This document shows, one piece after another, positions 751 through 51,796 of a stretch of DNA of 64,000 nucleotides; the first letter of the stretch is position 1, and each line of letters begins with the position of its first letter. The notes below the pieces were generated by a model, which saw only the letters and a program-made list of their open reading frames with translations, was not told the origin of the DNA and searched no databases. This stretch comes from a candidate division TA06 bacterium B3_TA06 (GTDB lineage Bacteria > Hydrothermota > Tepidihabitantia > B3-TA06): NCBI GenBank assembly GCA_005223075.1, contig NJBO01000003.1, positions 9,902 to 73,901 of the forward strand, written 5' to 3'. Both the position numbers and the translations under genes were made by a program.

Positions 751-811
751 GCTTTACACCTGGGATGATTCTAACGCTAAGGTTGTTTCCAATTAACGAT
801 ACCCCATCCCT

Positions 812-1552
812 TTAAGATGTGTTACGGGGTGTGTTACGGGCACGAAGTGAGCGTTTCATGTGTTTGACGATTTCTGCGATCTTCGCCTTACCCAACGAGA
901 TGATTTCGGAGAGCTGCTCGTCGGATATCGGTTCGCGCTCGGCGGTGAGCTGCAGTTCTATAAGTTTCCCATCTTCCGTTCCTACGATGCTTGCATCCAC
1001 CTGGGCCTTGGAGTCCTCCTCGTAACAGAGATCGGCAATAACCTGGCCCTCCACGATACCTGCACTCACCGCGGCCACAAATCTTCGCAGGGGCAAACGT
1101 TTGAGGATTCCTTCGCTGTGGAGTCTCTCACATGCCTGATACAGGGCGCAGAACCCGGCGCATATCGCAAGGGTCCTGGTTCCGCCGTCCGCCTGAAGAA
1201 CGTCCGTGTCAACGATGAGGGTATTCTCTTCCAATCTTTGAAGATCGAACCCCATCCTTAAGGAACGACCTATGAGCCTTGAAATCTCTTGACTGCGGGC
1301 AGAAGGTCTGCCTCTACGTGCCTCGCGCTGGTTGCGCTCCGGGGTTGCGGCGGGGAGCATGCCGTACTCCGCGGTGATCCATCCCTGTCCTTGCCCCTCA
1401 AGCCAGGTAGGCACGCGCGGCTCAAGCGATACGGCTGCAAGCACCCTTGTTTCCCCTGCCTGGGCAAGACACGAACCTGGGGCGAACTTAAGATACCCTA
1501 ACTGGAATGAAAGCGGTCGGAGTTCTTGAGGCTTGCGGCCGTCAACCCTCAT
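812..1552 (-). CDS. rph: Ribonuclease PH
   Basis: 246-aa ORF with RNase PH-like core; C-terminus has tandem PRNT-PRNT encoded by the recurring cccgtaacac motif. Confidence 0.9.
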   Translation of the reverse strand: MRVDGRKPQELRPLSFQLGYLKFAPGSCLAQAGETRVLAAVSLEPRVPTWLEGQGQGWITAEYGMLPAATPERNQREARRGRPSARSQEISRLIGRSLRMGFDLQRLEENTLIVDTDVLQADGGTRTLAICAGFCALYQACERLHSEGILKRLPLRRFVAAVSAGIVEGQVIADLCYEEDSKAQVDASIVGTEDGKLIELQLTAEREPISDEQLSEIISLGKAKIAEIVKHMKRSLRARNTPRNTS

Positions 1553-2363
1553 GGTTCACACTAACCCGAATAACATCGTGCATCGGCTCGCCCAAAAAGC
1601 GCTCACCGATCGAGCGGAAGTTGGGGGAAAGGTCGGTAAGGTAGAAGCGGCATGAGCCGTGATGGGACGTATCGCGAAGCAGGTTCATCTTCTTCAGAAC
1701 CTCGTGTGCGGCCTGCGCGGTCTCATCTCCAGAATCAACCAGCTTCACCTTGTGCTCAAAGAATCTGTCAAGCGCAGGCGCAAGCAAGGGATAATGGGTG
1801 CAGCCCAGGAGCAGGGTGTCTATCTTATCATCTCTCAAGGAGGTAAGATACTCGGCGATGACCTGGTGTGTTACGTTCTTATCCACCCAGTCCTCCTCTA
1901 CCAGGGGAACGAAGAGTGGTGTTGACTTGGCTATAACCCGTGCGTTGGGGTCTGCGGCAAGGATAGCACGTTCGTATTCTCCGGCAGAGATGGTGGCAGG
2001 CGTGCCTATCACACCTATACGGCGATTCTTAGAGGCCTTCGTAGCTGCCCGCGCCCCAGGCTCTATCACGCCGATGATGGGAAGCTTGAAGTCCTTCTTG
2101 AGGAATGGCAAGGCCGCAGAGGTCGCCGAATGACAGGCAACGATCACCATCTTAACCTGACGTTCAATGAGGAACTCGGTATCCTCGTGTGCGAAGCGGC
2201 GGATAGTCTCGGCAGATTTGGTTCCATAAGGCAAGCGGGCAGTATCGCCAAGGTAGACGATCTCCTCTGATGGGAGAAGCTCGGCAAGCGAACGCACCAC
2301 GGTAAGCCCGCCTATACCTGAATCAAATACACCTATGGGTTGATCCGCGTTTAATTTACTCAT
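1542..2363 (-). CDS. murI: Glutamate racemase
   Basis: 273 aa; motifs GVFDSGIGGLTV and GCTHYPLL; stop overlaps rph start. Confidence 0.9.
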   Translation of the reverse strand: MSKLNADQPIGVFDSGIGGLTVVRSLAELLPSEEIVYLGDTARLPYGTKSAETIRRFAHEDTEFLIERQVKMVIVACHSATSAALPFLKKDFKLPIIGVIEPGARAATKASKNRRIGVIGTPATISAGEYERAILAADPNARVIAKSTPLFVPLVEEDWVDKNVTHQVIAEYLTSLRDDKIDTLLLGCTHYPLLAPALDRFFEHKVKLVDSGDETAQAAHEVLKKMNLLRDTSHHGSCRFYLTDLSPNFRSIGERFLGEPMHDVIRVSVNHEG

Positions 2364-2456
2364 AATCCGTTTTCATTATGCCTCTATCAGGCCAATTTTA
2401 CGAGTTTCTCGATTCGACGCAACCTTTCCCAAAATGGTGGTGTTACGGGTTACGGG

Positions 2457-3806
2457 TTACGGGTTGACGCAATCAGACACCCCTTTGGCAATGCCTTCGG
2501 CTATCCTCTGGCGATAGGAGGACTGGCGAATCTTCGCCTCCTCTGTCGCGTTGGTCAAAAACCCGCCCTCGACGAGCACGGCAGGCATCGAGCAGCCCTT
2601 GAGCACGTAGAAGCCGGCCTGGTTAAGACCACGATTCGCAAAGCCGGTCTTGGCCGCTGACGCGTCCTGTATGTATCCGGCAAGCTCCTCGGACTCCCTC
2701 TGAAACCTGTTGGTAAGAAGGGCGGCGATGATGTCGTTGAGCACCGCATCTGGATTGTAGGCCTTCTCACCGATGTCGTACTTGAGCGATGCGTTCTCGC
2801 GCAGGGCCACATTCTTTGCATACTCAAGCCGATGCATTCCCAAAAAGTAGGTCTCGAACCCTGAAGGTGAGGAGGAGTTGTTGGCGTTGAAGTGGATGCT
2901 TATGAACAAATCAGCCTTTTTTTGGTTGGCGAACTTTGTGCGGTCGGCAAGTGGAACATACTTATCTGTGGTGCGCGTCATGTAAACGGTGTGCCCTTGA
3001 GCCTGGAGAAGCTTCTTTAACCGCAGAGATGTGTCCAGGGTCAAGACCTTTTCCTTGGTGCCCTTACGGCCTATAGCCCCCGGGTCCTTTCCTCCGTGTC
3101 CCGGGTCTATCACTATCACCAGCTTGCGCTTTGCCACAGGTTGCGTAACCACCGCCTTGCTCGTAAACGTAACCTGGACCCCGTTGGGGATACCCTTGGA
3201 GGCAATCGTGACCTCCTTGGAGAATTTCAGATCGATAGTCGTTTTGTTATTTTGGTTCTTAAGGGTTACAGAACTCACCAGACCTGTAGGACTTATCTCA
3301 TTTACATTGGAGCTGGCACCGACCTTGAGGGTCACCGAGGTTGCGGAGCGCTCGATAACCTCGCAGGCGATGCCGCCTGAGGCCAGAATCCGGATGGTGG
3401 TCGGATCAGAGCCGGAAAGGATTATCTTTTCTATCTTTATATCTTCCGAGGGCTTAAGCTGCGATGGGGAGATGCTGAAGATGCGATCAAGCATCTCAAC
3501 CGGTATGTAGAGGTTTACCCCGTCCCAGCCGATAGGCTCAGGCAGATGGATGCCTGCCTGGTTATCTATAACCACCGTGCGGTTTGAAGCGGTAAAGACG
3601 TACGTGTGACCGGCATAAACCAGCACCCCCTTCTTCTTTGCCGCAACCCAGGCATGCCTGGAACCTGTCTTAGCTGCAAACTCGGCTAAGGTAACCGACT
3701 CCCTGCCGTCGTAAGTGACGGTATTCATTGTCTTGCCCGCAAAGGTGACTGTGCCCGCCTCAAGAACAAACAAGACGAGCAGGGAGAGCACAAGCACGCG
3801 TCTCAC
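2457..3806 (-). CDS. N-acetylmuramoyl-L-alanine amidase (Amidase_3, AmiC-like), secreted
   Basis: 449 aa; N-terminal signal peptide; C-terminal core VIDPGHGGKDPGA...ISIHFNA; start overlaps smpB stop (ATGA). Confidence 0.85.
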   Translation of the reverse strand: MRRVLVLSLLVLFVLEAGTVTFAGKTMNTVTYDGRESVTLAEFAAKTGSRHAWVAAKKKGVLVYAGHTYVFTASNRTVVIDNQAGIHLPEPIGWDGVNLYIPVEMLDRIFSISPSQLKPSEDIKIEKIILSGSDPTTIRILASGGIACEVIERSATSVTLKVGASSNVNEISPTGLVSSVTLKNQNNKTTIDLKFSKEVTIASKGIPNGVQVTFTSKAVVTQPVAKRKLVIVIDPGHGGKDPGAIGRKGTKEKVLTLDTSLRLKKLLQAQGHTVYMTRTTDKYVPLADRTKFANQKKADLFISIHFNANNSSSPSGFETYFLGMHRLEYAKNVALRENASLKYDIGEKAYNPDAVLNDIIAALLTNRFQRESEELAGYIQDASAAKTGFANRGLNQAGFYVLKGCSMPAVLVEGGFLTNATEEAKIRQSSYRQRIAEGIAKGVSDCVNP

Positions 3807-4773: not shown

Positions 4774-4780
4774 TAATAGT

Positions 4781-4864
4781 TCCCCCTCCCTTTGTGGACA
4801 GTGTGCCCCTTGGGGTGCTAACTTTACTGCACCCCATAGGGTAGGGGGATAAAGGGGGAGGGGA
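4781..4864 (-). repeat. R2 ~85-bp MITE-like element
   Basis: Reverse complement matches the copies at 10334-10428 and 59613-59697 (cccctccccctt.atccccctaccctatggggtgcagtaaa.ttggcaccccaaggggcac.ctgtccacaaagggagggggaac). Confidence 0.7.
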
Positions 4865-4977
4865 ATTTTAGACTGACGTACTATCATCTGTCTCCTCCCC
4901 CTTGATGGGGAAGGTGTTTTTCACCCCACGCGTTTACTTCGCAGCCGCGCGGGGAGCCCGAGGATAAAATCCATAGC

Positions 4978-5125: not shown

Positions 5126-6529
5126 ATGAAGAGGTTTTCCCTAATCCTTATCCTGGCGAGTGTGGCGCTTGCAGTGATACCCACACAACTGGTCGCTGGC
5201 TGGTGGAGGACGTATGGAGGGGCAGAAAATGACGTAGGAAGATGCGTCAGGCAGACCCCTGATGGTGGCTACATAGTCCTTGGGCACACCTACTCTTTTC
5301 AAGGAGGCCCTATGTGGCTACTAAAGCTGGACCCCAACGGTGATACAGTTTGGACTAGACTCTATAACGGTAGCGCCGAGAATATCTACCTGACCAGCGA
5401 CGGGGGATATCTCATAGCGGGCGGGAAAAACGACAATCTCTGGTTGTTAAAGCTAAAAGAAAATGGGGACACTTCGTGGACTCGCACGTACGGAAAAGAT
5501 AGTTTGTTGGATTATGGTATTGCTGCATTCGAGACTGAAGATGGCGGATATATGCTTTTCGGAAGGACAGAATCCTTTGCAACGAATGAATGGGACGAAG
5601 ATGTTTGGATGTTGAGGACGGATGCCAAGGGAGATACTTTATGGACTAAGATCTACGGGGGAGAAGAAGATGACATACTTCGTTGTGTTCACCCCACTCA
5701 CCAAAAAGGAAAAGGCTACATAATGCTCGTTACGGCATATTCTTATATGGGTGATCAATTGGTTAAAGTCGACACGGCAGGCGAAGTACAATCTGAAGGT
5801 GAAGTATGGGTAGGTCTGCACACAGTATATATGAATGATGTTGTAAACGGCTATCTCGTCACATGTTGGGTTCATCCTAGTGGTGGGGAGTATAATATTT
5901 CCGATATCTATTTAGCCAAAACGGAATTTGGAAGCCTGGAACTTTATGAATGGGATGTATCTTGGGGGTCGGAATACTACGACTTAGGATATTACGTTGC
6001 ACTCACTAACGATTTTAGTTGTGTTGTCACCGGAGTATGGGGAGAAAATGGTCCTTCAGAAGGGGATCTTTTCCTGGCCAAAAGAGATCTTTGGGATGGC
6101 TGGGGGGTCTGGCAACGTATATATGGGGGTGACTCCTCCGAGTGGGGCAATTTCGTAGAACAAACAAGTGACGAAGGCTACATTGTGGTAGGGGGAACAG
6201 AATCATTCGGAGCAGGGGGAAGTGATATCTATATACTCAAAACTGACTCGTTAGGTTATGTCGGAGTAGAAGAGGAATCGGTTGCGGATAGGTGTGTTAC
6301 GGACTGGGATGCTACTCCCATCGGCCGCGAGATTATGCTGATGTATAAGGATAGGCCGGAAGGTTTCCACGCCGCTGTTTTCGACGAGTCGGGTCAAAAG
6401 GTTGACGAGTTGCACTCAACCCTGCACTCTGGCAGCGTGATGTGGGGTGAGGGGCACTCACCGGGTGTCTACTTCATTATGCCCACAGACGGGGAGTTGT
6501 CTAAACAGAAGGTGATCCTGATTCGATAG
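5126..6529 (+). CDS. Secreted repeat protein with T9SS-type C-terminal sorting domain
   Basis: 467 aa; SD gaaaggagg; N-terminal signal peptide; ~48-aa internal repeats (DGGY...G.T.SF...W.LKLD.NGDT.WT); C-terminus GVYFIMPTDGELSKQKVILIR resembles the CTD of the 50151-51796 gene. Confidence 0.6.
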   Translation: MKRFSLILILASVALAVIPTQLVAGWWRTYGGAENDVGRCVRQTPDGGYIVLGHTYSFQGGPMWLLKLDPNGDTVWTRLYNGSAENIYLTSDGGYLIAGGKNDNLWLLKLKENGDTSWTRTYGKDSLLDYGIAAFETEDGGYMLFGRTESFATNEWDEDVWMLRTDAKGDTLWTKIYGGEEDDILRCVHPTHQKGKGYIMLVTAYSYMGDQLVKVDTAGEVQSEGEVWVGLHTVYMNDVVNGYLVTCWVHPSGGEYNISDIYLAKTEFGSLELYEWDVSWGSEYYDLGYYVALTNDFSCVVTGVWGENGPSEGDLFLAKRDLWDGWGVWQRIYGGDSSEWGNFVEQTSDEGYIVVGGTESFGAGGSDIYILKTDSLGYVGVEEESVADRCVTDWDATPIGREIMLMYKDRPEGFHAAVFDESGQKVDELHSTLHSGSVMWGEGHSPGVYFIMPTDGELSKQKVILIR

Positions 6530-7096: not shown

Positions 7097-8776
7097 GTGG
7101 ATAGGTTCCCAAAGATAGCGCTGTGCCAGATCAACCCGACGGTGGGCGATCTACGCGGCAACGCGGCAAAGATAGTCGAATGGATCAAAAATGCCGAGGG
7201 ACAAGAGGCTGAGTTAATAGTCTTCCCTGAGCTTGTCCTTACCGGCTACCCGCCAAAAGATTTATTGCTCAAGACCCGCTTCCTTGAAGAACAGCGCCAG
7301 AGGCTTACCGAGATCGCTAAGATCACAGGTGATACTCCGGTCATCGTGGGCTGCGTGGATTTTACGCCTCGTAAGGAGGTGCGAGGCCAGAACCTATACG
7401 ACCTTTCGGCTCGAATAAGTGAGGGAAGAAGACTTTACAATGCCGCGGCAGTCCTTCGAGATGGCAAGGTTGAACGCTTCATTCATAAGAAATACCTACC
7501 TAATTATGACGTATTCGACGAAAAAAGGTACTTTGAAAGTCAATTCTGGCGCCAGAATCCTGTAATCGCCCTAAGGAACGGAACCAATGTGATGATTACT
7601 ATTTGCGAGGATATCTGGGTCGATAGAATTCTGAGTAAAATAAATTGGGCGAAATCGGACAAAGGTGCCGATCTCTTAGTAAACATCTCCGCCTCGCCCT
7701 TCTACGCCCGCAAGTTTCAAGCCAGGCTGGACTTATTGTCAACCAGAGCAAAGGAAGCCGGTCTGCCCCTTATCTACGTCAACATGATCGGCGGCCAGGA
7801 CGATTTGATCTTCGACGGTCGTAGCCTGGTGGTGGATGCAGGTGGCAGGATTGTAGGATTGGCCAAGGGATTTAAGGAGGATTTGTTTGTATACAATGGT
7901 GAGGATAAGGAAGTTAAACCTGAGATTGAGGAGGTGGGTGAAATCTGGCACGCGTTAACCCTGGGCCTGGGCGACTACGCTCATAAGAACAGCTTTTCAA
8001 AGGCTGTTCTCGGCGTCTCAGGGGGTATCGACTCGGCCCTAGTCGCCGCCTTAGCATCCGAGGCATTGGGGCCGGAGAACGTTCTGGGTCTGGTCATGCC
8101 CTCCAGCTACACCTCAAAACAGAGTCTCAAGGATGCTTTACTCCTATGCAACAACCTGGGCATCAAGACCGAACCCATATCCATAGACCCCCTGTTCGAG
8201 ACCTATCTTGCCACCCTGAAGGACCACTTCGCGGGCCAGGAACCCGACAACACCGAGCAGAACATCCAGGCGCGCATAAGGGGCAACCTTCTGATGGCAT
8301 TTTCCAACAAGTTCGGGTATCTGGTGCTGGCCACCGGCAACAAGTCTGAGCTTGCCGTGGGTTACGCAACTTTATATGGCGACATGTCAGGCGGTTTGGC
8401 TCCCATAGGTGACGTGCCCAAAACCACAGTCTATGCGCTTGCCCGCTGGCTCAACGAGCGTGAGCAGACCGACCAGATCCCCATCGGTATCCTGGAGCGC
8501 GCCCCATCTGCAGAGCTTGCGCCTGATCAAAAGGATGCCGACGACCTGCCGCCCTACGAGCTGCTGGATCGGGTGCTTGAGCTTTATATTGAAGAGAACC
8601 TATCCTCCAAGGAGATTATAGCTAAGGGATTCGATGAGGGACTGGTGCGCTCGATTATCAGCCGGATTGACCATTCCGAGCACAAACGTCGCCAGGCCGC
8701 ACCGGTATTGAAAATCACTCCAAGAGCATTCGGTTTTGGCAGAAGAATGCCGATAACGAATAGGTACGAGGGGTAG
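7097..8776 (+). CDS. nadE: Glutamine-dependent NAD+ synthetase
   Basis: 559 aa; N-terminal CN-hydrolase domain plus C-terminal NAD synthetase domain (GVSGGIDSALVAALA P-loop-like motif); GTG start. Confidence 0.9.
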   Translation: MDRFPKIALCQINPTVGDLRGNAAKIVEWIKNAEGQEAELIVFPELVLTGYPPKDLLLKTRFLEEQRQRLTEIAKITGDTPVIVGCVDFTPRKEVRGQNLYDLSARISEGRRLYNAAAVLRDGKVERFIHKKYLPNYDVFDEKRYFESQFWRQNPVIALRNGTNVMITICEDIWVDRILSKINWAKSDKGADLLVNISASPFYARKFQARLDLLSTRAKEAGLPLIYVNMIGGQDDLIFDGRSLVVDAGGRIVGLAKGFKEDLFVYNGEDKEVKPEIEEVGEIWHALTLGLGDYAHKNSFSKAVLGVSGGIDSALVAALASEALGPENVLGLVMPSSYTSKQSLKDALLLCNNLGIKTEPISIDPLFETYLATLKDHFAGQEPDNTEQNIQARIRGNLLMAFSNKFGYLVLATGNKSELAVGYATLYGDMSGGLAPIGDVPKTTVYALARWLNEREQTDQIPIGILERAPSAELAPDQKDADDLPPYELLDRVLELYIEENLSSKEIIAKGFDEGLVRSIISRIDHSEHKRRQAAPVLKITPRAFGFGRRMPITNRYEG

Positions 8777-10333: not shown

Positions 10334-10428
10334 TACTTCTTTTCCCCTCCCCCTTTATCCCCCTACCCTATGGGGCGCAGTAAAATTGGCGCCCCAAGGG
10401 GCACGCTGTCCACACAGGGAGGGGGAAC
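10334..10428 (+). repeat. R2 ~85-bp MITE-like element
   Basis: cccctccccctttatccccctaccctatggggcgcagtaaaattggcgccccaaggggcacgctgtccacacagggagggggaac; nested inverted repeats. Confidence 0.7.
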
Positions 10429-10554
10429 TATTATCTCGAATAAGCAAACATTCCTAAATTCCCATTGCGAACTTTTCTGTGAAGGAGAAAAGGAGCATAA
10501 ATCCGCAGATTGGAACTCCTTTCAGTCGTTCTCCTTCGGAACGCAGATCCGTAG

Positions 10555-15691: not shown

Positions 15692-16812
15692 GTGACACCC
15701 TCTTCCCGGAGTTCTCTCAAGAGGACGAGCGCTACATGTGCATGGCTTTAGCTCTGGCAGAGAAGGGAAGGGGTCAGGTTTCGCCCAATCCCATGGTAGG
15801 TGCGGTAATCGTGAAGGAAGGTGAGGTGGTTGGCAAAGGCTATCATTCCCGCTACGGAGGGCCTCACGCCGAGGCTATCGCTATCGCCGACGCCGGGCTG
15901 CGGGCGGACGGCGCGACCCTTTATGTGAATCTCGAACCGTGCGTACACTTCGGGCGTACGCCTCCATGTGTGGAGAAGATATCCAAAGCCCGTATCCTGA
16001 GGGTAGTGATCGCCATAAAAGACCCGGACAGGCTGGTTAACGGCAAAGGCATAGAGTACCTGCGCCGCTCACACATTCATGTGGATGTAGGGCTTTTAGA
16101 AGACGAAGCTCGCGCGTTGAACCAGGCCTATTTCAAGCACCGCGAGACGGGCTTGCCCTTGATTATCCTTAAGCTCGCTACCACACTCGACGGGAAGCTA
16201 GCTACTTCTACAGGCGACTCCAGGTGGATCACAGACGAGGAGGCGCGGCGTTACTCGCATCAACTGAGGACCGAGTCCGACGCGGTGATGGTAGGCATTG
16301 GAACCGTTTTGGCCGACAACCCCCAGCTTACCGTGAGGCTAGTAACCGGGCGCAATCCCCTCAAGGTGATACTCGACACCAAGCTTAAGATGCCTGCCGA
16401 TGCCAAGGTGTTCGATGAAGGCAAAACATTGATTTTCACATCACGCGAATCGCTTGCTCGAAGAGAAAGTTACGATGCGGCAAAGGTTTCGTTCGCAGCG
16501 GTCGACCTGACTGAAGATGGACGGCTGAATCTTAAAAAGGTGCTGAAAGAGCTGGGGAGAAGGCAGATCGCCCAGCTCCTGGTTGAAGGCGGCGGCATGC
16601 TTGCCTCCGAGCTGCTGCGTCAGGGCCTTGTGGATCGCTTCATCTGCTGCATCAACCTCTCGTTCCTCGGCAAAGGAATCGGCTACACCGACACCATTGA
16701 GTACTCCAACATCAACGAACGAATCTGTCTTAAAGACGTGAAGGTTTCCTGGCTGGGTAAAGATCTAAGACTCGAGGCGCGACCTTGTTTACCGGCATCA
16801 TCGAGGAAGTAG
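15688..16812 (+). CDS. ribD: Bifunctional riboflavin biosynthesis deaminase/reductase
   Basis: 374 aa; deaminase zinc motif HAE...PCVHFGRTPPC plus C-terminal reductase domain. Confidence 0.9.
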   Translation: MSDTLFPEFSQEDERYMCMALALAEKGRGQVSPNPMVGAVIVKEGEVVGKGYHSRYGGPHAEAIAIADAGLRADGATLYVNLEPCVHFGRTPPCVEKISKARILRVVIAIKDPDRLVNGKGIEYLRRSHIHVDVGLLEDEARALNQAYFKHRETGLPLIILKLATTLDGKLATSTGDSRWITDEEARRYSHQLRTESDAVMVGIGTVLADNPQLTVRLVTGRNPLKVILDTKLKMPADAKVFDEGKTLIFTSRESLARRESYDAAKVSFAAVDLTEDGRLNLKKVLKELGRRQIAQLLVEGGGMLASELLRQGLVDRFICCINLSFLGKGIGYTDTIEYSNINERICLKDVKVSWLGKDLRLEARPCLPASSRK

Positions 16813-17366
16813 GCACCCTTCGCAGGGTCACCAGTCGAGGAGATAACAAGATCCTTGAGATTGAAACGAGTTTGGAGCTGAGCGAGGGTGACAGCTTGGC
16901 GGTGAGCGGTGCGTGCCTGACTGTGATCAAGGTTGAACCAGGATTCCTGAAGGCAGAGGCGACAGGAGAAACGATCAAAAGGACGATACTCGGCGATCTG
17001 CACGCAGGCTCACGGATCAATCTGGAGAGGGCGCTGACATTGCAGAAGCCCTTGGGAGGCCATCTGGTGCAGGGGCACGTGGATGAGGTGGGTAAGGTTG
17101 CCGCGCTCAAGAAGACTCAAGACGCATGGCATATAGAGGTGGCGTTCTCACGCGAAGCGGATGGTCTGGTGGTTGATCAGGGCTCTGTTGCCATTGATGG
17201 TGTTAGCCTCACGGTGTTAAAAAAATTGCCTGGGCCAAAACTCACCGTTAACCTGATCCCAGAGACCCTGCGCAGAACCACCTTATCCGGGCTAAGGGTG
17301 GGCGATAAGGTGAACCTTGAGTTCGATATAATCGCCAAGTACGTGCGGGAACACACCCGCCCGTAA
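16785..17366 (+). CDS. ribE: Riboflavin synthase alpha subunit
   Basis: 193 aa, MFTGIIEEVGTL N-terminus; overlaps ribD; 3' end contains tandem cacccgcccgtaa duplication. Confidence 0.85.
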   Translation: MFTGIIEEVGTLRRVTSRGDNKILEIETSLELSEGDSLAVSGACLTVIKVEPGFLKAEATGETIKRTILGDLHAGSRINLERALTLQKPLGGHLVQGHVDEVGKVAALKKTQDAWHIEVAFSREADGLVVDQGSVAIDGVSLTVLKKLPGPKLTVNLIPETLRRTTLSGLRVGDKVNLEFDIIAKYVREHTRP

Positions 17367-17388
17367 CACCCGCCCGTAACACCCCTTA

Positions 17389-17464
17389 ACCGCAGATTAC
17401 GCCGATTTCGCCGATGGATCTGTTCTTTAATCCGTGTAATCTGCGAAATCTGTGGTTTATTCCT
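17389..17464 (+). repeat. R6 76-bp direct repeat, copy 1
   Basis: accgcagattacgccgatttcgccgatggat...aatccgtgtaatctgcgaaatctgtggtttattcct. Confidence 0.75.
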
Positions 17465-17495
17465 GCGGGAGCAAATCGCAAGGTAGATTCCTTTT

Positions 17496-17571
17496 ATCCG
17501 CGGATTACGCCGATTTCGCCGATGGATATATTCTTTAATCCGTGTAATCTGCGAAATCTGTGGTTTATTCC
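17496..17571 (+). repeat. R6 76-bp direct repeat, copy 2
   Basis: Near-identical to copy 1, 31-bp spacer between; ends 8 bp before the -35 at 17579. Confidence 0.75.
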
Positions 17572-17578
17572 TAAGCAC

Positions 17579-26085: not shown

Positions 26086-26295
26086 CGGAGCAATCTAGCA
26101 GAAAGTAAGGGCGCCTTTAGGGCATCTAAGACTCCAAAAACGACGAGTGGGAAGGGGCTACCCCAACCAAATTCTTGATATCATTTTTTTGATTTATAAC
26201 AAAAGCTCTTGACAATCATAAAATTTTGTGCATCATTAGGGATAGAAGGAAGATTTATGTCCTTCTTTCAGAAACCTTCAACCCAAGGAGGAGAT

Positions 26296-26745
26296 ATGCA
26301 TAACTCCAAAAAACTCATACTCGCCGTCCTGGCAGTTATCCTGCTGCTGGGAGCCACTCCGGCGTTCGCTCAGCTGGGCGGAACCTGGGAGGGCATAGGT
26401 AGGGGCGAAGCTTACCCGCCCTGTCACCCTCCTATACACCCCTGGCAGACGTGGAAGGGCGAGATCCCGGCCACCCAAGATGTCTTCACCGGCGAATGGT
26501 GGGATGCGGACGGCAATCACGGCACATTCAAGGGCGTGGTGGAGTTCTCACCCATTCCTGAGATAGCATACGCTGAAGGCGAATGGACATGGTACGACCC
26601 CACAGGCCACTCTCAGCAACCAATAGTCGGCGGCAAGTTCAAGATGACGTTCTACATCCTGGAAAAAAGATGCGAAGGCACCTGGACATCCATCTGGCCC
26701 TCACCCAGCGATCACGGCACCATGAAAGGCTGGAAGGTAGATTAA
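26296..26745 (+). CDS. Array paralog 1: small Sec-secreted Trp/Cys-rich protein, subtype A
   Basis: 150 aa; start placed at ATG 26296 (SD aaggagg); signal MHNSKKLILAVLAVILLLGATPAFA; PPCHPPIHPWQTWKGEIP ... GTMKGWKVD. Confidence 0.7.
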   Translation: MHNSKKLILAVLAVILLLGATPAFAQLGGTWEGIGRGEAYPPCHPPIHPWQTWKGEIPATQDVFTGEWWDADGNHGTFKGVVEFSPIPEIAYAEGEWTWYDPTGHSQQPIVGGKFKMTFYILEKRCEGTWTSIWPSPSDHGTMKGWKVD

Positions 26746-26809
26746 CCTTCCATGAAACTCGGAGGGGCAGATTTCTGCCCCTCCTCACAGATCACAAAAG
26801 GAGTAAGAG

Positions 26810-27253
26810 ATGAGTAACTTCAAAAAACTCACGATCGCCGCGCTCGCGGTGATCTTTCTGATCGGAGCAACGCCTATTGCCGCCGAGCTCGACGGCATCT
26901 GGGAAGGCCATGGCGATGGAACCTGGCGGCCACCAAGCGGCATAGTACCTGTTCACCCCTGGCAAACCTGGAAAGGCACCGTCGAGAACGGACGCTTTTA
27001 CGGGGAGTGGTACGATAGCACAGGCGCCCACGGCAGATTCCAAGGCGTCATACCATCCTTAACCCAAGAGGTAGCATACTGCGAAGGCTTCTGGACGTGG
27101 GTAGATGAAGGTTGCGACCCACCACGGGAGATCACCGTAGGTCCGTTCGAGATGGATTTTCACTACGTCATTGAAACATGCAGGGGCGCATGGTGGAGTG
27201 AACTTACCGCCGTCCCGCAAGGACACATGTGGGGCCGAAGGACAGGCCCGTAG
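26810..27253 (+). CDS. Array paralog 2, subtype B-like
   Basis: 147 aa; signal MSNFKKLTIAALAVIFLIGATPIAA; HPWQTWKGTVENG ... CEGFWTWVD. Confidence 0.7.
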   Translation: MSNFKKLTIAALAVIFLIGATPIAAELDGIWEGHGDGTWRPPSGIVPVHPWQTWKGTVENGRFYGEWYDSTGAHGRFQGVIPSLTQEVAYCEGFWTWVDEGCDPPREITVGPFEMDFHYVIETCRGAWWSELTAVPQGHMWGRRTGP

Positions 27254-27326
27254 GGCATAATAGAAACCAAGCAGGGGGCGGGGTTACTCGCCCCCTCATA
27301 AACCTAAAACCTCAAAGGAGGAACAA

Positions 27327-27773
27327 ATGAGCAACTCCAAAAAACTCATAATCGCCCTCGCCGTGATCTTCTTGGTTGGGGCAACACCTGCCTTGGCCGA
27401 TCTCGATGGTATTTGGGAAGGCTATGGTAATGGCAGCTACTACTTACCTGACGGTAGCATCATCTACCCATGGCAAAGCTGGAACGGTACTGTCGAGAAT
27501 GGAGTCTTCAGCGGCTCCTGGGAAGATGACGAAGGCAACTCCGGCGGTTTCACAGGAGGCATCACATGCTTCTTCACTACTGTCCCACCCTCATATACGT
27601 TTGCCGGCTGCGAAGGAACCTGGACGTGGATTGACCCCAGCGGCTTAGAACCCATTGAACTAGGGAGCTTCTGGATGACGTTCAACGTAGACCTTGACAC
27701 CTGCTGGGGCGAATGGTTGCCTTACACTAATGCTCAGGGTGGAACCATGTGGGGCTGGAGGATAGGAGACTGA
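27327..27773 (+). CDS. Array paralog 3, subtype B
   Basis: 148 aa; YPWQSWNGTVENG ... CEGTWTWID ... GGTMWGWRIGD. Confidence 0.7.
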   Translation: MSNSKKLIIALAVIFLVGATPALADLDGIWEGYGNGSYYLPDGSIIYPWQSWNGTVENGVFSGSWEDDEGNSGGFTGGITCFFTTVPPSYTFAGCEGTWTWIDPSGLEPIELGSFWMTFNVDLDTCWGEWLPYTNAQGGTMWGWRIGD

Positions 27774-27846
27774 GGCATAATAGAAACCAACCAGGGGGCG
27801 GGGTTACTCGCCCCCTCATAAACCTTAAACCAAAAGGAGGAACAAA

Positions 27847-28302
27847 ATGAGTAACTCCAAAAAACTCCTCATCGCCCTGGCTGTGATACTTGCAGTCGGG
27901 GCAACGCCCCTCCTCGCACAACTTGAAGGACCGTGGGCAGGCAATGGCGAAGGAAGCTGCAAGACACCCACCGGAATCACTATCTACCCTTGGCAGGAGT
28001 GGGACGGCTTCGTGGAGAATGGAGCCTTCGACGGCAGTTGGTGGGACGGCGACAACGGCGGCAACTTTCACGGCGACATAATATCCATCAGCACCCCAGT
28101 CCCACCCGCGGAACCACATGACGTAGCATACTGTGAAGGCACCTGGACATGGGTAAATGACGAGGGGGAGGAGATATCTATGGGCCAGTTCTGGATGAAC
28201 TTTGACCTCCTCTACGGAACATGCGAAGGTGAATGGTGGCCTTGCAATCGCCCTGAGCCTTGGGGCCCGGGAATCATGTGGGGCTGGAGGATAGGAGACT
28301 GA
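27847..28302 (+). CDS. Array paralog 4, subtype B
   Basis: 151 aa; YPWQEWDGFVENG ... CEGTWTWVND ... IMWGWRIGD. Confidence 0.7.
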   Translation: MSNSKKLLIALAVILAVGATPLLAQLEGPWAGNGEGSCKTPTGITIYPWQEWDGFVENGAFDGSWWDGDNGGNFHGDIISISTPVPPAEPHDVAYCEGTWTWVNDEGEEISMGQFWMNFDLLYGTCEGEWWPCNRPEPWGPGIMWGWRIGD

Positions 28303-28375
28303 GGCATAATAGAAACCAAGCAGGGGGCGGGGTTACTCGCCCCCTCATAAACCTTAAACCTCAAAGGAGGAACAA

Positions 28376-28813
28376 ATGAGCACCCCAAAAAAAATCCTGC
28401 TAACCGCTTTGGCGGTGATCCTTTTACTAGGGGCCACGCCTATTGCCGCCCAGATCGCAGGAGTCTGGGAGGGCACCGGTAAAGGCGCAGCTTACCCGCC
28501 CTGCCACCTACCTATATATCCATGGCAGAAATGGATAGGCGAGATACCAAACTCTGAAGACGTCTTTTTCGGCGAGTGGAAAGACACCCTTGACAACCAC
28601 GGCAGATTCGAAGGCAAGCCTGCACCTTACTCCACTCCTGATGCGAAGGTGTTCAAAGGCTACTGGACCTGGGAAACCCCCGAAGGGATATTCAAAGGCG
28701 GCGAATTCACGATGACCTTTTACTTCTTGGAAGGCGAATGCAAGGGCACCTGGACATCCATCTGGCCTTCGCCGGGCAAGCTGGGAACCATGAGAGGCTG
28801 GAAGGTGCACTGA
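28376..28813 (+). CDS. Array paralog 5, subtype A
   Basis: 145 aa; PPCHLPIYPWQKWIGEIP ... GTMRGWKVH. Confidence 0.7.
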   Translation: MSTPKKILLTALAVILLLGATPIAAQIAGVWEGTGKGAAYPPCHLPIYPWQKWIGEIPNSEDVFFGEWKDTLDNHGRFEGKPAPYSTPDAKVFKGYWTWETPEGIFKGGEFTMTFYFLEGECKGTWTSIWPSPGKLGTMRGWKVH

Positions 28814-28880
28814 AGCATACAACCAACCAGGGGGCGGCCCTCCGCCCCCTATAAACCTTAAACCTCAAAGGAGGAACAAA

Positions 28881-29318
28881 ATGAGTAACCCCAAAAAACT
28901 CCTCATCGCCGCGCTTGCGGTGATCTTCCTGCTCGGCGCAACGCCCCTTGCCGCCGAGCTAGACGGGTTCTGGGCAGGAACTGGCACTGGCTGCTGCCAT
29001 CCAGAGTCCACCACCATCACCATATACCCCTGGCAGACATGGGACGGCTTCGTCGTGAACCACGAGATCTTTCACGGTGAGTGGCAAGATAGCTTAGGAC
29101 ACCAAGGCACCTTCGAAGGAAGAGTCGTCCAGATAGACTCAACCTATGCGGTTTTCGAAGGCACGTGGAGATGGACTGACCCCACCATACTCATAATCCC
29201 TCCTGTTATAGGCGAGTTCCATATGGACTTCGATCTTCTCACCCGCACCTGCCTGGGCGAATGGTTCTACCATGAGGACTACGGAACCATGCAAGGACAA
29301 AAACTGGAGACAAAATAA
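28881..29318 (+). CDS. Array paralog 6, divergent B-like
   Basis: 145 aa; GCCHPESTTITIYPWQTWDGFVVN ... GTMQGQKLETK. Confidence 0.7.
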   Translation: MSNPKKLLIAALAVIFLLGATPLAAELDGFWAGTGTGCCHPESTTITIYPWQTWDGFVVNHEIFHGEWQDSLGHQGTFEGRVVQIDSTYAVFEGTWRWTDPTILIIPPVIGEFHMDFDLLTRTCLGEWFYHEDYGTMQGQKLETK

Positions 29319-29393
29319 GAAAGAACAGACAAACCAACCAGGGGGCGGGGTTACTCGCCCCCTCATAAACCTTAAACCTCAAAGGAGGAACAA

Positions 29394-29834
29394 ATGAGCA
29401 CCCCAAAAAAAATCCTGCTAACCGGTTTGGCGGTAATCCTTTTACTAGGGGCCACGCCGCTTGCCGCCCAGATCGCAGGAAGATGGGAGGGTACTGGTAC
29501 AGGCGAAGCTTACCCGCCCTGCCACCCGCCTATACACCCCTGGCAGATCTGGATGGGCGAGATCCCGCTCACTCAGGATGTTTTCACAGGCGAATGGTGT
29601 GACGCGGACTGCAATCACGGCACCTTCAAGGGCGAGATAGCCCCTTTCTCAACTCCAGAGGAAGCATACTGTGAAGGTTATTGGACGTGGGATGATCCTT
29701 CCAGCCCGTCCATCATTGTAGGCCATTTCAAGATGACGTTCTACATCCTGGAAGGAATATGCGAAGGCACCTGGACATCCATCTGGCCATCGCCCAGCGG
29801 TCCCGGAACCATGAAAGGCTGGAAGATAGACTGA
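29394..29834 (+). CDS. Array paralog 7, subtype A
   Basis: 146 aa; PPCHPPIHPWQIWMGEIP ... GTMKGWKID; 5' end nearly identical at nucleotide level to paralogs 5 and 12. Confidence 0.7.
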   Translation: MSTPKKILLTGLAVILLLGATPLAAQIAGRWEGTGTGEAYPPCHPPIHPWQIWMGEIPLTQDVFTGEWCDADCNHGTFKGEIAPFSTPEEAYCEGYWTWDDPSSPSIIVGHFKMTFYILEGICEGTWTSIWPSPSGPGTMKGWKID

Positions 29835-29907
29835 GGTATACCTCGACAGACCATCAGGGGGCGGCCCTCCGCCCCCTTACAAACCTTAAACCAAAAGGAG
29901 GAACAAA

Positions 29908-30342
29908 ATGAGTAACTCCAAAAAACTCCTCATCGCCGCGCTTGCGGTGATCTTCCTCGCAGGGGCTACGCCTCTCGCCGCCCAGCTCGCAGGAGTCTGG
30001 GCAGGCACGGGCGAAGGCTGCTGCAGCCCTCCCGGAACTACCATCTACCCTTGGCAGACGTGGAAGGGTGAAATACCCAACAGCCAAGACGTGTTTTCCG
30101 GCAAGTGGTGGGACGCAGATAGCAACCGGGGCACCTTCCACGGAAAGATAATAATCTCCAGTGTCACCGAAGCATACTGCGAAGGTATCTGGAACTTAGA
30201 TGACCCTTCAGGGGCTTCAATCATTGGAGGTGATTTCAAGATGACATTCTACATCCTGGAAGGAACATGCGAAGGCACCTGGATATCCATCTGGCCCACC
30301 GCCTTACCCGCAACCATGAGAGGCTGGAAGGTAGAACCGTAA
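29908..30342 (+). CDS. Array paralog 8, A/B mosaic
   Basis: 144 aa; B-type signal peptide with A-type body (YPWQTWKGEIPNSQDVFSGKWWD ... TMRGWKVEP). Confidence 0.7.
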   Translation: MSNSKKLLIAALAVIFLAGATPLAAQLAGVWAGTGEGCCSPPGTTIYPWQTWKGEIPNSQDVFSGKWWDADSNRGTFHGKIIISSVTEAYCEGIWNLDDPSGASIIGGDFKMTFYILEGTCEGTWISIWPTALPATMRGWKVEP

Positions 30343-30406
30343 AGTCACAACCTAGGGGGCGGGCTTGTGCCCCCTCATAAACCTCAAACCTCAAAGGAGG
30401 AACAAA

Positions 30407-30856
30407 ATGCACAACTATAAAAAACTCATACTCGCCGCCCTGGCAGTTATCCTGCTGCTGGGAGCCACTCCGGCGTTCGCTCAGCTGGCCGGAACCTGGG
30501 AGGGCACTGGTAGGGGCGAAGCTTACCCGCCCTGCCACCCTCCTATACACCCCTGGCAAAACTGGATAGGCGAGATCCCGAACTCTCAGGATGTGTTTTT
30601 CGGCGAATGGTGGGACTCGGACTGCAATCACGGCACCTTCAAGGGCGAAATAGCCCCTTTCTCCACTCCAGAGGAAGTATACTGTGAAGGCGAATGGACA
30701 TGGTACGACCCCACAGGCTCCTCTCACCAACCAATAGTCGGCGGCAAGTTCAAGATGACGTTCTACATCCTGGAAGGAAGATGCGAAGGCACCTGGACCT
30801 CCATATGGCCATCGCCCAGCGAGCACGGAACCATGAGAGGCAGGAAGGTACACTGA
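30407..30856 (+). CDS. Array paralog 9, subtype A
   Basis: 149 aa; start placed at ATG 30407 after SD aaaggagg; ends GTMRGRKVH. Confidence 0.7.
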   Translation: MHNYKKLILAALAVILLLGATPAFAQLAGTWEGTGRGEAYPPCHPPIHPWQNWIGEIPNSQDVFFGEWWDSDCNHGTFKGEIAPFSTPEEVYCEGEWTWYDPTGSSHQPIVGGKFKMTFYILEGRCEGTWTSIWPSPSEHGTMRGRKVH

Positions 30857-30925
30857 ACCTTAACGCCGAGCGGGGACGGGTTTCCATCCCCGCTCGGGAT
30901 AAACCTTAAACCAAAAGGAGAAGCA

Positions 30926-31354: not shown

Positions 31355-31425
31355 GGCATAATAGAAACCAACCAGGGGGCGGCCATCCGCCCCCACTTAA
31401 ACCCTAAACCTCAAAGGAGGAACAA

Positions 31426-31875: not shown

Positions 31876-31953
31876 GGATATACCGGGAAACCGGCTAACC
31901 CAGGGGGCGGGCTTCCGCCCCCTGATAAACCCTAAACCTCAAAGGAGGAACAA

Positions 31954-32971: not shown

Positions 32972-32974
32972 AAA

Positions 32975-36186: not shown

Positions 36187-36813
36187 TTACCTGTAGATGG
36201 TCTCCCCTACGGTAACGATCCACCCTTCGTCTTCTTGAGGTATATGGAACCGAGGCCCTTGTCTGAAGTGGGGGGTCTTAGCGGCCTCTAAGTTCTGCCT
36301 GGCCGTCTCATCAAGCGGGATAAGAATAACTGTATCATGCGAAGGCTCCTCATAGGCTGCAACATGTACATCTGAGTGGTTGGTTTGGGATGATTGACCG
36401 AACCCCTGAGCGTGTGCCAGCCCAAGCGGCGGGCCAAGGGGTTCGGCTGCGGGTTCAATTACCAGTGGTGTTACGGGTTCCGCTCGAGGCTCAGGAGTGG
36501 TGCTGTGGGGAAGAAGTATAAGGAGAGCTATTGCAGCACTTATTGCAAATCCCAGGACTATCCCGCGCCACAACCCCTGAGTTTTTGGAGCCTTGGAGGC
36601 AGAAATACGTGCACGGACGCCTGCAAGGAGACCTGGAGGAACCTCAACAGGCTCAAGGCTTTCTGCCAGATCCTTAATGTGAACAATCTCTGCAAGGCGC
36701 CTCTTACACCCTGAGCACCCCTTAAGGTGACTTGCCAGGTGAGTTTTTTCCGCTCCACTCAAATCCCCGTCGGCGTAGCGGGATAGGGTTGCATCAGACG
36801 GGTGTCGGCCCAT
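36187..36813 (-). CDS. Anti-sigma factor with zinc-finger (HC2-type) N-terminus
   Basis: Start placed at internal ATG 36811-36813 (SD ggagg upstream; MGRHPSDATLSRYADGDLSGAEKTHLASHLKGCSGCKRRL); ORF-track start 36855 lies inside the sigma-factor gene. Confidence 0.6.
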   Translation of the reverse strand: MGRHPSDATLSRYADGDLSGAEKTHLASHLKGCSGCKRRLAEIVHIKDLAESLEPVEVPPGLLAGVRARISASKAPKTQGLWRGIVLGFAISAAIALLILLPHSTTPEPRAEPVTPLVIEPAAEPLGPPLGLAHAQGFGQSSQTNHSDVHVAAYEEPSHDTVILIPLDETARQNLEAAKTPHFRQGPRFHIPQEDEGWIVTVGETIYR

Positions 36814-46725: not shown

Positions 46726-47296
46726 TGAACAGAAAAAGGAGCTTTTCTCAAACCTTATCCACAAGGTAAGTCAGGCCACGCGTCCCGTAACACAACCTGA
46801 CTCTTCCCTTTCATCTTCTGAAGCACAGTCAGGCGACGATGCCGATGCCAGGCTTCAGGCAGTATGTGATCTCCTCAAAGAAGAAGTTCCCCACTACGAC
46901 TGGGTAGGATTCTATCTGGTAGACCCCAACAAGGAACGTGAACTTGTTCTCGGCCCATTTGCCGGCGAACCCACCGAACACGTTCGCATCCCCTTCGGCT
47001 ACGGCATATGCGGGCAGGCCGCTGAGCGAAAGAAGACCTTTATGGTCCCGGACGTTGCCAGGGAGCAAAACTATCTCTCTTGCAGCCCGCACGTCAAATC
47101 CGAGATCGTACTGCCCGTACTCAGACAGGGCGAGGTGATGGGGGAGCTGGACATTGACTCCAACACCCTGAATGCGTTTTCGGAGGAGGACAGGGCTTTC
47201 CTCTTAAAGGTCTGCTACGCCGCTACCAGGCTGTTGCAGCGCTCACAGGAGGCAAGAAAAACCCAGTACCCGTACCCCTTCGGGGCATTCTCATAA
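46718..47296 (+). CDS. GAF-domain free methionine-(R)-sulfoxide reductase-like protein
   Basis: 192 aa; WVGFYLV ... ICGQAA motifs typical of fRMsr-type GAF domains. Confidence 0.7.
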   Translation: MTDEQKKELFSNLIHKVSQATRPVTQPDSSLSSSEAQSGDDADARLQAVCDLLKEEVPHYDWVGFYLVDPNKERELVLGPFAGEPTEHVRIPFGYGICGQAAERKKTFMVPDVAREQNYLSCSPHVKSEIVLPVLRQGEVMGELDIDSNTLNAFSEEDRAFLLKVCYAATRLLQRSQEARKTQYPYPFGAFS

Positions 47297-47513
47297 TTAT
47301 TCGGAGCTTACGCTCCGCGCACAAGGAGATAACACCCGTAACACGCCTTGCGTAATATAGATGATAAGTTGCATTGGCAGGAGATTTAAAAATCGGAGGT
47401 TTTGGAAATGAATAGCTCAGTAAGCAGTTATCCCTTCATCAGACAAGGGGCTTAAGCCCCTTGTTGGGAGATTGTAAGACAGAGAAGAAAGAAAAAAATC
47501 AAAGGAGAACGAC

Positions 47514-50150: not shown

Positions 50151-51796
50151 CTAACGCAGCAGGATGACCTTTTTTGTCGCCGTCTTAGCAGATTGAAGGC
50201 GAATAAAGTAGACGCCGGGCGAGTGGTGTGTTACGGGCCAGGTGATTGTGCCGGATGATCCGCTGACGTGCAATTCATCCACCTTTCTGCCCACCGCGTC
50301 GAAGACAGCGAAGCTGGCGTGGAAGCCTTGAGGCATATCGAAGTATTGCAGGACGATTTGACGTCCGACCGAAGCTGAGAGCCGCCAATTGGATGGATGT
50401 GTTACGGGTGTTACGGGCGGCTCCTCGGAAATGCCTATCCTCGCAAGATCCGCAACGGGGAAGAAATCCGAACCCTTATCATCTCCACAGCTCGCAATCG
50501 TAGCCACCTTATTGGAAGCCATCACGTGGTAGATCGCATGGGCTGTTGCGTCGCCAAGTGCACTGGTGTAGCGGTAGTACTCCCCTGTGTGTAGAGTTCC
50601 CTGCCAGATTTCTGTTTTGTCTCCTCCATCTCGTGGAATCCTTGTCACTGTGACCTCCGTACTGTCTTTGAATGCGACAACATGAAGTCGAGAATAATAA
50701 TCCCTGCCGCCTCCGGAAAGTGATGTCTCAACGGGGAGATAAAACTCTGTTCCTAGACCGGTGCCGCCTCGGTCTATTCCCCGAACCATGTAGAAGGCAA
50801 TCATGCTTGCACCGTAGCTGGCCCAGGGAGTCTGAGCAACCGAGATATCCTTATCCGCATGTATGTAAAGGGCTATCCTCTGAGGCATATCCATTCCCTT
50901 GATCTCACCCTTTTTAGGACACACCACCTGCCAGATCGTATCAGCGGGATCATCAAGATCGGTAACGACAACCGTTGCATCGTCTTCCCAGGGGATGATG
51001 TTCAAATCCTGAGATGCCTCTGTCCAGTTATGACAATAGGTAATGAAATCCTGACCGGTGAAGGTTCCGTTGAACGCAGGTGCGTATGTGCCTACAACCC
51101 CGCTGAGCCCGCTGAGAGTCACCGCCGACACAGGCTTGGTTGACTCAACCGAGAAGATTAAGGGATGGGGAGTCGGAGAGTCTTGGAGATAATACTCGGC
51201 GCTATCCAGATCGCCCTCCCATATTATTCCACCTTCATCTATATCGCGAACAACGACATGGGTACTATCGTAATAGGCGAAGACAGCTATAACCGCATCG
51301 CTTACAGAAGAGATTTTGGGCCCCACAGATAGAGCTTGGTACTGAGTGGGCTGTTGTTTCCATCCACCGCGTACCAGCAGCCTAATCCTTCAATAAACGG
51401 ATCGCCACTGAGAACCGAAAACCCTTTGGGGGCAATAATTCTGTATACACCTGCGGCGAGATCGCTTACCAGTTTATACTCCTCCTCCATCAAGGTATCA
51501 AACCAGACGGACTGACCATCGGAGTCTACTACCTGGAATTCGGTCGAATCAGCCTAGGAAAAGATCACCACATCGCCGTAGGTATACACGTAGGTGGCAA
51601 AGGTATCCTCTTCGGACAACGCGGGGAATTGAAAGCGCCCGACAGTATGGGTGGGTTCGGAGTCATCAAGGACAGACATCAGTATGCCGCCGACTGCATA
51701 ATCCGACCACTGGTTCTCACCCGATCCGTAGAGGACAAACCCAGCGCCCATAACCAACACCACCAGCACCGCACTCCAAAACACGTTTTTCTTCAT
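50151..51796 (-). pseudogene. Disrupted gene for a T9SS-CTD secreted protein (in-frame TAG plus frameshift)
   Basis: Three consecutive ORFs (51554-51796 with signal peptide; 51302-51493; 50151-51326 ending in T9SS-like CTD GVYFIRLQSAKTATKKVILLR); segments 1 and 2 are in the same frame separated by TAG at 51551-51553; segments 2 and 3 differ by a frameshift near ggggccc/aaaa runs around 51320. Confidence 0.5.

Follow-up and report, generated by a model that had tools for sequence, protein, structure and literature searches.

Heptamer tandem repeats known as STRR are dispersed in cyanobacterial genomes. The GGGNATC repeats of Xanthomonas and Nostoc lie near the ends of open reading frames (ORFs), occupy the same loci in related genomes and vary in length (PMC4692102), and TAACTGA repeats are dispersed in Beggiatoaceae (PMC4679880). 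It has long been asked what spreads one dispersed tandem unit and holds its copies uniform. Here, we describe a repeat family based on the 10-mer GTGTTACGGG/CCCGTAACAC in a 64,000-nt stretch of DNA from the candidate division TA06 bacterium B3_TA06 (contig NJBO01000003.1, positions 9,902 to 73,901; hereafter the window), together with a candidate cause, the 66-nt element X, which inserts only into the repeat unit, rebuilds the unit at both of its ends and has clean filled and empty sites. The existence of such sites makes the question testable by genome comparison and by a search for the enzyme. The nearest described kind is the lineage-specific dispersed short tandem repeat, here accompanied by an in-frame miniature element. 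As in the STRR, GGGNATC and TAACTGA families, a single lineage carries tandem copies of one short unit at many dispersed loci; in the manner of STRR repeats, the loci are unlinked and the unit number varies at the same locus, and, as with GGGNATC, the arrays occur near ORF ends, at loci shared by relatives and with variable length. Unlike in these three families, the unit measures 9-13 nt rather than 7, about 40% of the arrays lie in genes and are translated in frame, and the motif supplies stop codons, abuts promoter -35 boxes and is the insertion site of a 66-nt element.

The original prediction, made from the window, was that the 10-mer is over-represented, with at least 11 copies. We found 11 exact copies at eight sites, against 0.05 expected from dinucleotide shuffles, none of which (0/100) reached that number, and a k-mer count ranked GTGTTACGGG/CCCGTAACAC as the most frequent 10-mer of the window. 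The copies start at 819, 831 and 2440 (+), 17360 and 17373 (-), 36468 (+), 46784 and 47335 (-), and 50228, 50399 and 50408 (+), which corresponds to one site per 8 kb. Four of the eight sites are tandem, as had been stated, with periods of 12 (819-840), 7 (2440-2463, where GTTACGG is present three times at 2442-2463), 13 (17360-17382) and 9 (50399-50417). A further copy, placed at 6292-6302, has to be withdrawn, since only the one-mismatch sequence GTGTTACGGA is present there (6294-6303), in the orientation opposite to the gene, and it is probably due to chance. The excess also withstood the codon-aware background that had been proposed as its possible refutation: the interiors of coding sequences (CDS) hold seven copies, whereas shuffling synonymous codons under unchanged proteins predicts 0.16 and permuting the codons of each gene predicts 0.03, and seven copies were reached in 0/400 shuffles in either test. 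That chance, codon bias or an assembly or sequencing artefact is the source of the motif is thus a negligible prospect; its only point is that PVT and RNT, the peptides encoded by the repeat, are ordinary ones, and the artefact is further contradicted by the same arrays being present, with different unit numbers, in independent ENA, Logan, JGI and NCBI assemblies. The over-representation of the 10-mer is real and strongly non-random.

A scan of one genome per species (185,579 species), with two motif copies within 30 nt as the criterion, returned at least 120 stretches with motif pairs, about 34 chance matches being expected by our own estimate. Among the matches listed, about 65 stretches belong to eight Candidatus Stahlbacteria/WOR-3 assemblies and one further assembly, those from other taxa are collagen-like or other repetitive single genes, and dispersed arrays are confined to the Stahlbacteria/WOR-3 assemblies. 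The nearest homologues of the window gene rph (RNase PH) are named candidate division WOR-3, whereas a look-up of the exact rph sequence of the window gave no record. The closest assembly, SOJW01 E44_bin36, is 95-99% identical to the window across window 43-50 kb. Relatives whose rph is 68-75% identical have no more than 0-1 motif copy in the syntenic 13-20 kb. Hence, the repeat family expanded within a subclade of Candidatus Stahlbacteria (candidate division WOR-3), which are uncultured bacteria of sediments. The literature searched, including papers on Stahlbacteria/WOR-3, yielded no mention of the repeat or of a bacterial motif with the sequence of the 10-mer.

The anatomy of the repeat was established on 237-254 distinct arrays from about 0.5-0.8 Mb (824 kb) of related loci (designated below by L and a number), all of which, except the window, were picked for motif pairs or for X, from metagenomic assemblies. 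The consensus unit is A-CCCGTAACAC-ACC. Unit length ranges from 7 to 18 nt, with spacings of 9 (n=67) and 12 (n=33) being the commonest, followed by 11, 10, 15, 7 and 18. Arrays of one to seven units number 113, 79, 36, 18, 5, 2 and 1, respectively (n=254), more than half of them thus being direct tandems of two to seven units. The variable part of the unit consists of an AC run and a C run between GTA and CCCG, and slippage in these two runs could explain the differing periods. The commonest unit variants are the transitions CCCATAACAC and CCCGCAACAC.

Within this sample (n=237), 109 arrays are intergenic, 97 lie inside CDS and 31 on CDS edges; this is not a strong non-coding bias, although intergenic DNA is still enriched relative to its share of about 18% of the window. 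The arrays in coding sequence occur in both orientations and in all frames, and are translated as PVT or RNT repeats or, when reversed, as VLR, CYG or VTG. Spacings divisible by three make up 73/74 of those in CDS versus 64/114 of those between genes (Fisher p = 1.6e-12), and therefore slippage makes all lengths and selection keeps only the in-frame ones in genes. A phase-variation (contingency) repeat, in which a tract in the 5′ part of a gene has units not divisible by three and switches the frame as copies change, was ruled out by the same figure of 73/74. In the window, the motif is on the sense strand at 8/8 sites and its orientation flips with gene direction six times in 64 kb. Strict co-orientation with transcription was nonetheless rejected, as the larger sample gave a weaker sense:antisense ratio of 59:38 inside genes (p = 0.04). 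The 20 arrays that overlap a stop codon are all in the sense orientation (20:0), in part because the motif contains TAA. The earlier statements that copies lie at stop codons and create tandem duplications in proteins both held: the stops of the amidase and ribE genes of the window are TAA triplets within the motif, the rph product ends in ..RARNTPRNTS, and a protein with a Por_Secre_tail match contains ..PPVTPVTHP... The arrays remodel proteins, to which they add runs of PVT or RNT, and create new C-termini and stop codons; they also stand beside many promoters.

Across species, the arrays hold the same positions between flanks that are 75-95% identical, and the unit number differs almost everywhere. 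The comparison of rph C-termini among relatives, which had been recommended as a check, gave 0, 2, 3 or 5 units, with the proteins ending in ..HRARV, ..RNTPRNTS or ..RNTPRNTPRNTS. At the amidase site, orthologues have one unit (L012), three units (L003) or a degenerate unit (L001 and L074). The orthologue of the anti-sigma factor gene in L050 carries four units of period 18 (PVTPLE x4) versus one in the window, and the site at the N-terminus of the GAF protein has one unit in the window and in L053 and three to four in L121. In a pair of loci with flanks 95-98% identical, a clean 9-nt tandem duplication of ACACCCGTA creates a perfect 10-mer. These comparisons show that tandem duplication and deletion change the number of units in an array, in agreement with the view of the original prediction that the motif is prone to slippage. 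The arrays could serve as strain markers for this uncultured phylum.

Element X occupies 66 nt of the window (47269..47334, + strand), where it supplies the final codons and the stop of the GAF gene, and the exact 10-mer at 47335..47344 (+), immediately 3′ of it, forms the right-hand junction. X starts with CCCGTA, which is followed by hairpin 1 (CCCC-TNCG-GGGG), the spacer CATTYTCAYWATTAYT, hairpin 2 and the end ..AAGGANATAACA; in the window copy, hairpin 1 is CCCC-TTCG-GGGG (at 47275) and hairpin 2 is CGGAGC-TTAC-GCTCCG (at 47302), followed by ..AAGGAGATAACA. The genome loci contain 12 copies of X and the metagenome contigs about 45, and motif units of the same orientation flank nearly every copy. 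Matches to human-gut contigs in the X search proved to be unrelated sequence. A subfamily, X2, shares this layout except for hairpin 2, which differs, and is often in tandem with X. The pairing of hairpin 2 is kept with different stems (CGGAGC, TGGAGC, CCAGGAAC and CCAAGAC). X shares with the motif two open frames, PVT and RNT, and a closed one, the TAA frame; the length of 35/39 distinct copies is divisible by three, and the X of L034 is also read in frame.

Three orthologous pairs of filled and empty sites show that X moves. The window with X corresponds to five plain units in L053 (flanks 96-98% identical); L034 has X inside an array that L120 and L019 possess without X; and the NAD synthase gene of L247 has gained 66 nt (22 codons) in frame beside the single unit of L001. 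At the latter site, the empty form reads ..A/CCCGTA/ACAC and the filled form ..A/CCCGTA/CCCC...ATAACA/CCCGTA/ACAC, and therefore X is enclosed by two copies of a 6-7-nt core belonging to the motif. With CCCGTA at its start and ATAACA at its end, X restores the motif at each junction. In L034 and L241, a 12-nt insert, GGTGTGTTACGG, which equals one inverse motif unit, is found between the spacer and hairpin 2 of X. This looks like a single unit inserted into DNA without a repeat and hints that the 10-mer may move by itself.

We consider it somewhat probable that the units of this dispersed tandem repeat, into which X inserts, are seeded and refreshed by the insertion and loss of X-type elements. 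X would insert and leave by site-specific recombination on the 6-7-nt core ACCCGTA, and its insertion or loss would duplicate motif units or leave them behind. Leftover units would then expand by slippage, with only frame-keeping lengths surviving within genes, and sequences similar to the unit, for example GTCAAC (the -35 box TTGAC in reverse), may act as seeds. The descriptive part of this proposal is well supported. That X is the cause is plausible yet not proven, given that about 90% of the arrays are without X and no enzyme was found. The original prediction of a mobile motif was upheld only indirectly, by the dispersal of the motif over hundreds of loci in one lineage and by its being the specific insertion site of the 66-nt X, whose ends it matches.

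Several observations weigh against the proposed role of X. No transposase, integrase or reverse transcriptase was detected beside X or the arrays or among the 30 window proteins scanned, and no partner enzyme was present as a multi-copy ORF in the sampled loci, where only secreted proteins with sorting domains recurred. X is short, multi-copy (about 57 copies) and has filled and empty orthologous sites, as expected of a miniature inverted-repeat transposable element, and yet its terminal inverted repeats are unclear, the ends CCCGTACCCCTTCGGGG and ..CAAGGAGATAACA matching at best at about 9/13 positions by eye. The direct repeat that flanks X, ACCCGTA (6-7 nt), is identical to the target motif, and as a duplication of 6-7 nt is indistinguishable from that motif, recombination between flanking units could also move X. 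Covariation in the hairpins is modest (95% of cells paired, two pairs changed on both sides) and the single-sequence fold of X is not significant (z = -1.7), for which reason we make no claim of an RNA gene; Rfam gave no known RNA family in the window or at X. As the loci were chosen for motif pairs or X, densities and class proportions are biased, and the gene calls, which come from our own simple codon-score finder, are approximate. The Pfam scan of the 30 window proteins returned housekeeping genes only, and the xerC-like gene in the neighbourhood appears to be an ordinary housekeeping copy.

Pure slippage, with independent expansions of a chance proto-repeat and X as a long variant unit copied by homologous recombination, would account for the whole-unit changes, the 9-nt tandem duplication and, through slippage in the AC and C runs, the period differences, and the homologous units flanking X would be possible recombination arms. 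Nevertheless, slippage homogenises units within an array, not among hundreds of arrays and several species. X entered a single 10-13-nt unit in a gene, where the homology is too short for recombination of the RecA type, and the inverse 12-nt unit inside X arose where no repeat existed. A satellite of this kind is therefore an unlikely explanation.

The seeding and refreshing of units by X-type elements can also be set against described mobile elements. Rickettsia palindromic elements (RPEs), which measure about 100-150 nt, and other miniature elements insert inside genes (PMC10969869). X resembles the RPEs in being short, multi-copy, hairpin-bearing and translated in frame in unrelated housekeeping genes (NAD synthase and GAF). 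Unlike the RPEs, it is 66 nt long, lacks clear terminal inverted repeats and inserts only into or next to one 10-nt motif; the two occur in different phyla, and no likeness in sequence is expected. X also recalls Xer-dependent integrative mobile elements (IMEX) and integron attC cassettes, as it can stand in tandem and has on either side a 6-7-nt core of which the empty site holds a single copy, the pattern expected when a site on an element recombines with one on the chromosome. A dif site is 28 bp long and the integron core is GTTRRRY; in contrast to these systems, the motif is far shorter than dif and has no match to GTTRRRY, and the sampled DNA gave no dedicated recombinase. IS200/IS605 elements (TTAC target), integron attC sites and Xer/dif were rejected as identities for X, its hairpins being unlike each other, its core not GTTRRRY and its motif too short. 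REP/BIME elements mobilised by RAYT transposases, which are extragenic imperfect palindromes of 20-40 nt with a GTAG head, were likewise rejected, as the motif is not palindromic, has no GTAG and is often inside genes. It is possible, although we lean against it, that X and the motif form a self-propagating mini-element and attachment-site system of a previously undescribed kind. If so, X would be a translatable element without terminal inverted repeats that integrates at a 10-nt motif, in a site-specific or an RNA-templated manner, and whose repeated insertion and loss, by leaving or duplicating units, would create the arrays as landing sites for further copies at gene ends, within protein linkers and beside motif-like -35 boxes.

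The units are strikingly uniform. Perfect units number 463 and one-mismatch units 168, of which about 31 are expected by chance, and divergence from the consensus is about 3%, compared with 10-25% in orthologous flanks. Such uniformity across hundreds of arrays and several species would require an active source or selection. One such source could be a DNA uptake or recombination signal, similar to the DNA uptake sequences (DUS) of Neisseria, the uptake signal sequences (USS) of Pasteurellaceae or Chi, whereby motif-bearing DNA is preferred and perfect copies accumulate by molecular drive; the tandem arrays would then be a by-product of slippage, and X would spread via uptake and recombination between flanking units. 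As with DUS and USS, an exact word of 9-12 nt is strongly over-represented, perfect copies exceed near-perfect ones (about 3:1 over one-mismatch copies), and copies lie in tolerated coding regions and at gene ends and are shared by several related species of one lineage. Copies that arise by substitution in conserved coding sequence, such as PVTH in murI, and a mosaic recombination breakpoint exactly at the rph array also fit an uptake signal. Uptake sequences of Neisseria and Haemophilus occur about once per kb and are not known to form direct tandem arrays. The motif differs from them in its direct tandem arrays, instead of single or inverted copies, in its lower density of one site per 8 kb and in its fixed orientation at promoters (36 versus 1-3), for which an uptake signal offers no rationale. 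Among the 30 window proteins scanned, a tiny sample, there was no competence gene, and competence goes unmentioned in the papers on WOR-3 that were consulted. Taken together, we judge an uptake signal to be distinctly improbable.

GTCAA is present within 20 nt on the 5′ side of 36/237 arrays, as compared to 3, 1 and 1 for the other three configurations; 26/36 of these also have a TAnnnT -10-like box at a spacing of 16-18 nt, and 30/36 are intergenic. On the opposite strand, TTGAC(A) directly after the array gives a canonical -35/-10 promoter arrangement, (GTGTTACGG)n - 0 to 12 nt - TTGACA - 17 nt - TATAAT - gene. About 15% of the arrays thus stand immediately next to a promoter -35 box, always in the same orientation. 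The same abutment is seen at the end of the amidase gene, where GTCAAC codes for Val-Asn and is ancestral, which favours the idea that GTCAAC, through its resemblance to the unit (CGTAAC), seeds arrays. A function in transcription might instead account for the fixed -35 orientation, which would count against an origin from X. In L006, L087 and other promoter-adjacent arrays, several genes appear to start only 4-10 nt after the -10 box; this would mean leaderless mRNAs, while other genes of the window have strong ribosome-binding sites.

Such a function would make the motif a cis-element, that is, a protein-binding site, a G-quadruplex or i-motif, or a C-rich RNA signal acting at the start or end of transcription, with selection keeping the units perfect. 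Besides the constant placement and orientation of arrays just upstream of canonical -35/-10 promoters, the enrichment at gene 3′ ends and the conservation of array positions across species agree with this explanation, and there are precedents: the G-rich heptamer repeats near ORF ends of Xanthomonas and Nostoc form G-quadruplexes in vitro (PMC4692102), and the TAACTGA repeats of Beggiatoaceae have been proposed to be regulator binding sites (PMC4679880). Conversely, the arrays in coding sequence (about 40%) use either orientation and every frame, the number of units is not conserved, and function does not explain the insertion of X into the unit. A G-quadruplex repeat (at least four G3 tracts with loops of at most 7 nt) was tried and rejected, as only 20/254 arrays match and unit numbers fall steadily, so that, unlike GGGNATC, the motif shows no preference for four units. 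We therefore see little likelihood that a cis-acting function explains the arrays, and retain the seeding of units by X-type elements as the preferred account.

Relative to the Pfam domains, the copies in the window fall in tails and linkers of the encoded proteins, which were assigned to RNase PH, Amidase_3, riboflavin synthase (two Lum_binding domains), a zf-HC2 anti-sigma factor, a GAF protein and a secreted protein. The rph array (819..840, minus strand) comprises two units of period 12 (CCCGTAACACAC CCCGTAACAC on the gene strand) and encodes RNTPRNT at the C-terminus of RNase PH (812-1552). Together with 70 nt it forms a 91-nt segment between rph and the next gene (751..841, minus strand) that is absent in L003, in which the two genes overlap. 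The segment is bordered by an imperfect duplicate of this overlap (ATGTCCTTCAT / ATGCCCTTTGT), and it is 95% identical between the window and L001, whereas the flanks are 75-80% identical. Identity at the rph array is mosaic, L001 being similar to L003 on the 5′ side and to the window (95%) on the 3′ side, which places a recombination breakpoint at the array. In murI, a degenerate unit, AACGTAACAC (NVTH; 1868..1877, minus strand), is present; it is perfect (PVTH) in L001 and L074 and reads CCCGTAACGC in L003 and CCTGTAACAC in L012.

The array at the end of the N-acetylmuramoyl-L-alanine amidase gene (2457-3806) consists of three CCCGTAA units of period 7 plus CAC (2440..2463, minus strand). 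Its first unit contains the stop TAA (2457-2459), and on the + strand the array adjoins TTGACG (2464-2469), which here codes for Val-Asn. At the end of ribE (16785-17366), two units of period 13 (17360..17382, + strand) include the stop TAA (17364-17366) within the first unit. Single units read as PVT are located in the linker of the zf-HC2 anti-sigma factor (36187-36855; unit at 36468..36477, minus strand) and in the N-terminal tail of the GAF protein (46718-47296; unit at 46784..46793, + strand). The secreted protein (50151-51326) has a single unit read as PVTH in its C-terminal sorting-domain region (50228..50237, minus strand) and two units of period 9, read as PVTPVT, in the linker preceding the sorting domain (50399..50417, minus strand); its Por_Secre_tail match is weak (E 9e-5, 23.1 bits), under the 27-bit cut-off of Pfam.

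The NAD synthase of the window (7097-8776) and of distant relatives keeps the stretch ..YLPNYDVFDEKRYF.. of the CN_hydrolase domain. In its place, L001, L012 and L247 have a motif unit (..HN-TRNT-PPEES..); L253 and L255 were also compared, and the DNA of L255, CGTTACTTCGACACACCT, is unit-like. This suggests that a similar native sequence may have been converted into the motif.

Arrays are often situated at the very end of a contig (L008, L036, L098 and L129), which suggests that they break short-read assemblies. In viral contigs, X was not found, and most motif pairs are in collagen-like genes. The viral-classified IMG/VR loci L129, L133, L138 (GC 57%) and L139 look Stahlbacteria-like, whereas the other 49 viral matches appear to be mostly collagen-like or otherwise repetitive coding genes. 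These four loci have Stahlbacteria-type arrays at one to three sites each and may be phages or prophages of the Stahlbacteria lineage.

Two further repeats of the window were examined as possible members of the motif family and rejected, being separate families unlinked to the motif. The first, ‘Z’, is intergenic, rich in G/C and about 90 nt long, and its ends are palindromic (TTCCCCCTCCC...GGGGGAGGGGAA); it is found at 4774-4865, 10342-10433 (inverted), 59612-59700 and, partially, at 59730-59789, and also in L012, L031, L058, L106 and L121; its features resemble those of a miniature mobile element, and it shows no association with the 10-mer. The second, ‘Y’, is a palindromic unit of about 80 nt (GCAGATTAC...GTAATCTGC) with two tandem copies (17390-17470 and 17498-17573) immediately 3′ of the ribE array and shortly ahead of a TTGACA promoter, and one more copy in L049. 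Short direct-repeat pairs, 91-94% identical, lie between small ORFs at 44196-44252/44860-44916 (57 nt) and 54620-54684/55376-55440 (65 nt). Finally, about 15 paralogous ORFs of 145-180 aa are arranged in tandem at 26209-33643 (+), many pairs being 60-82% identical and each ORF being preceded by a strong Shine-Dalgarno sequence, AAAGGAGGAACAA; a representative, 26810-27253, had no match in Pfam.

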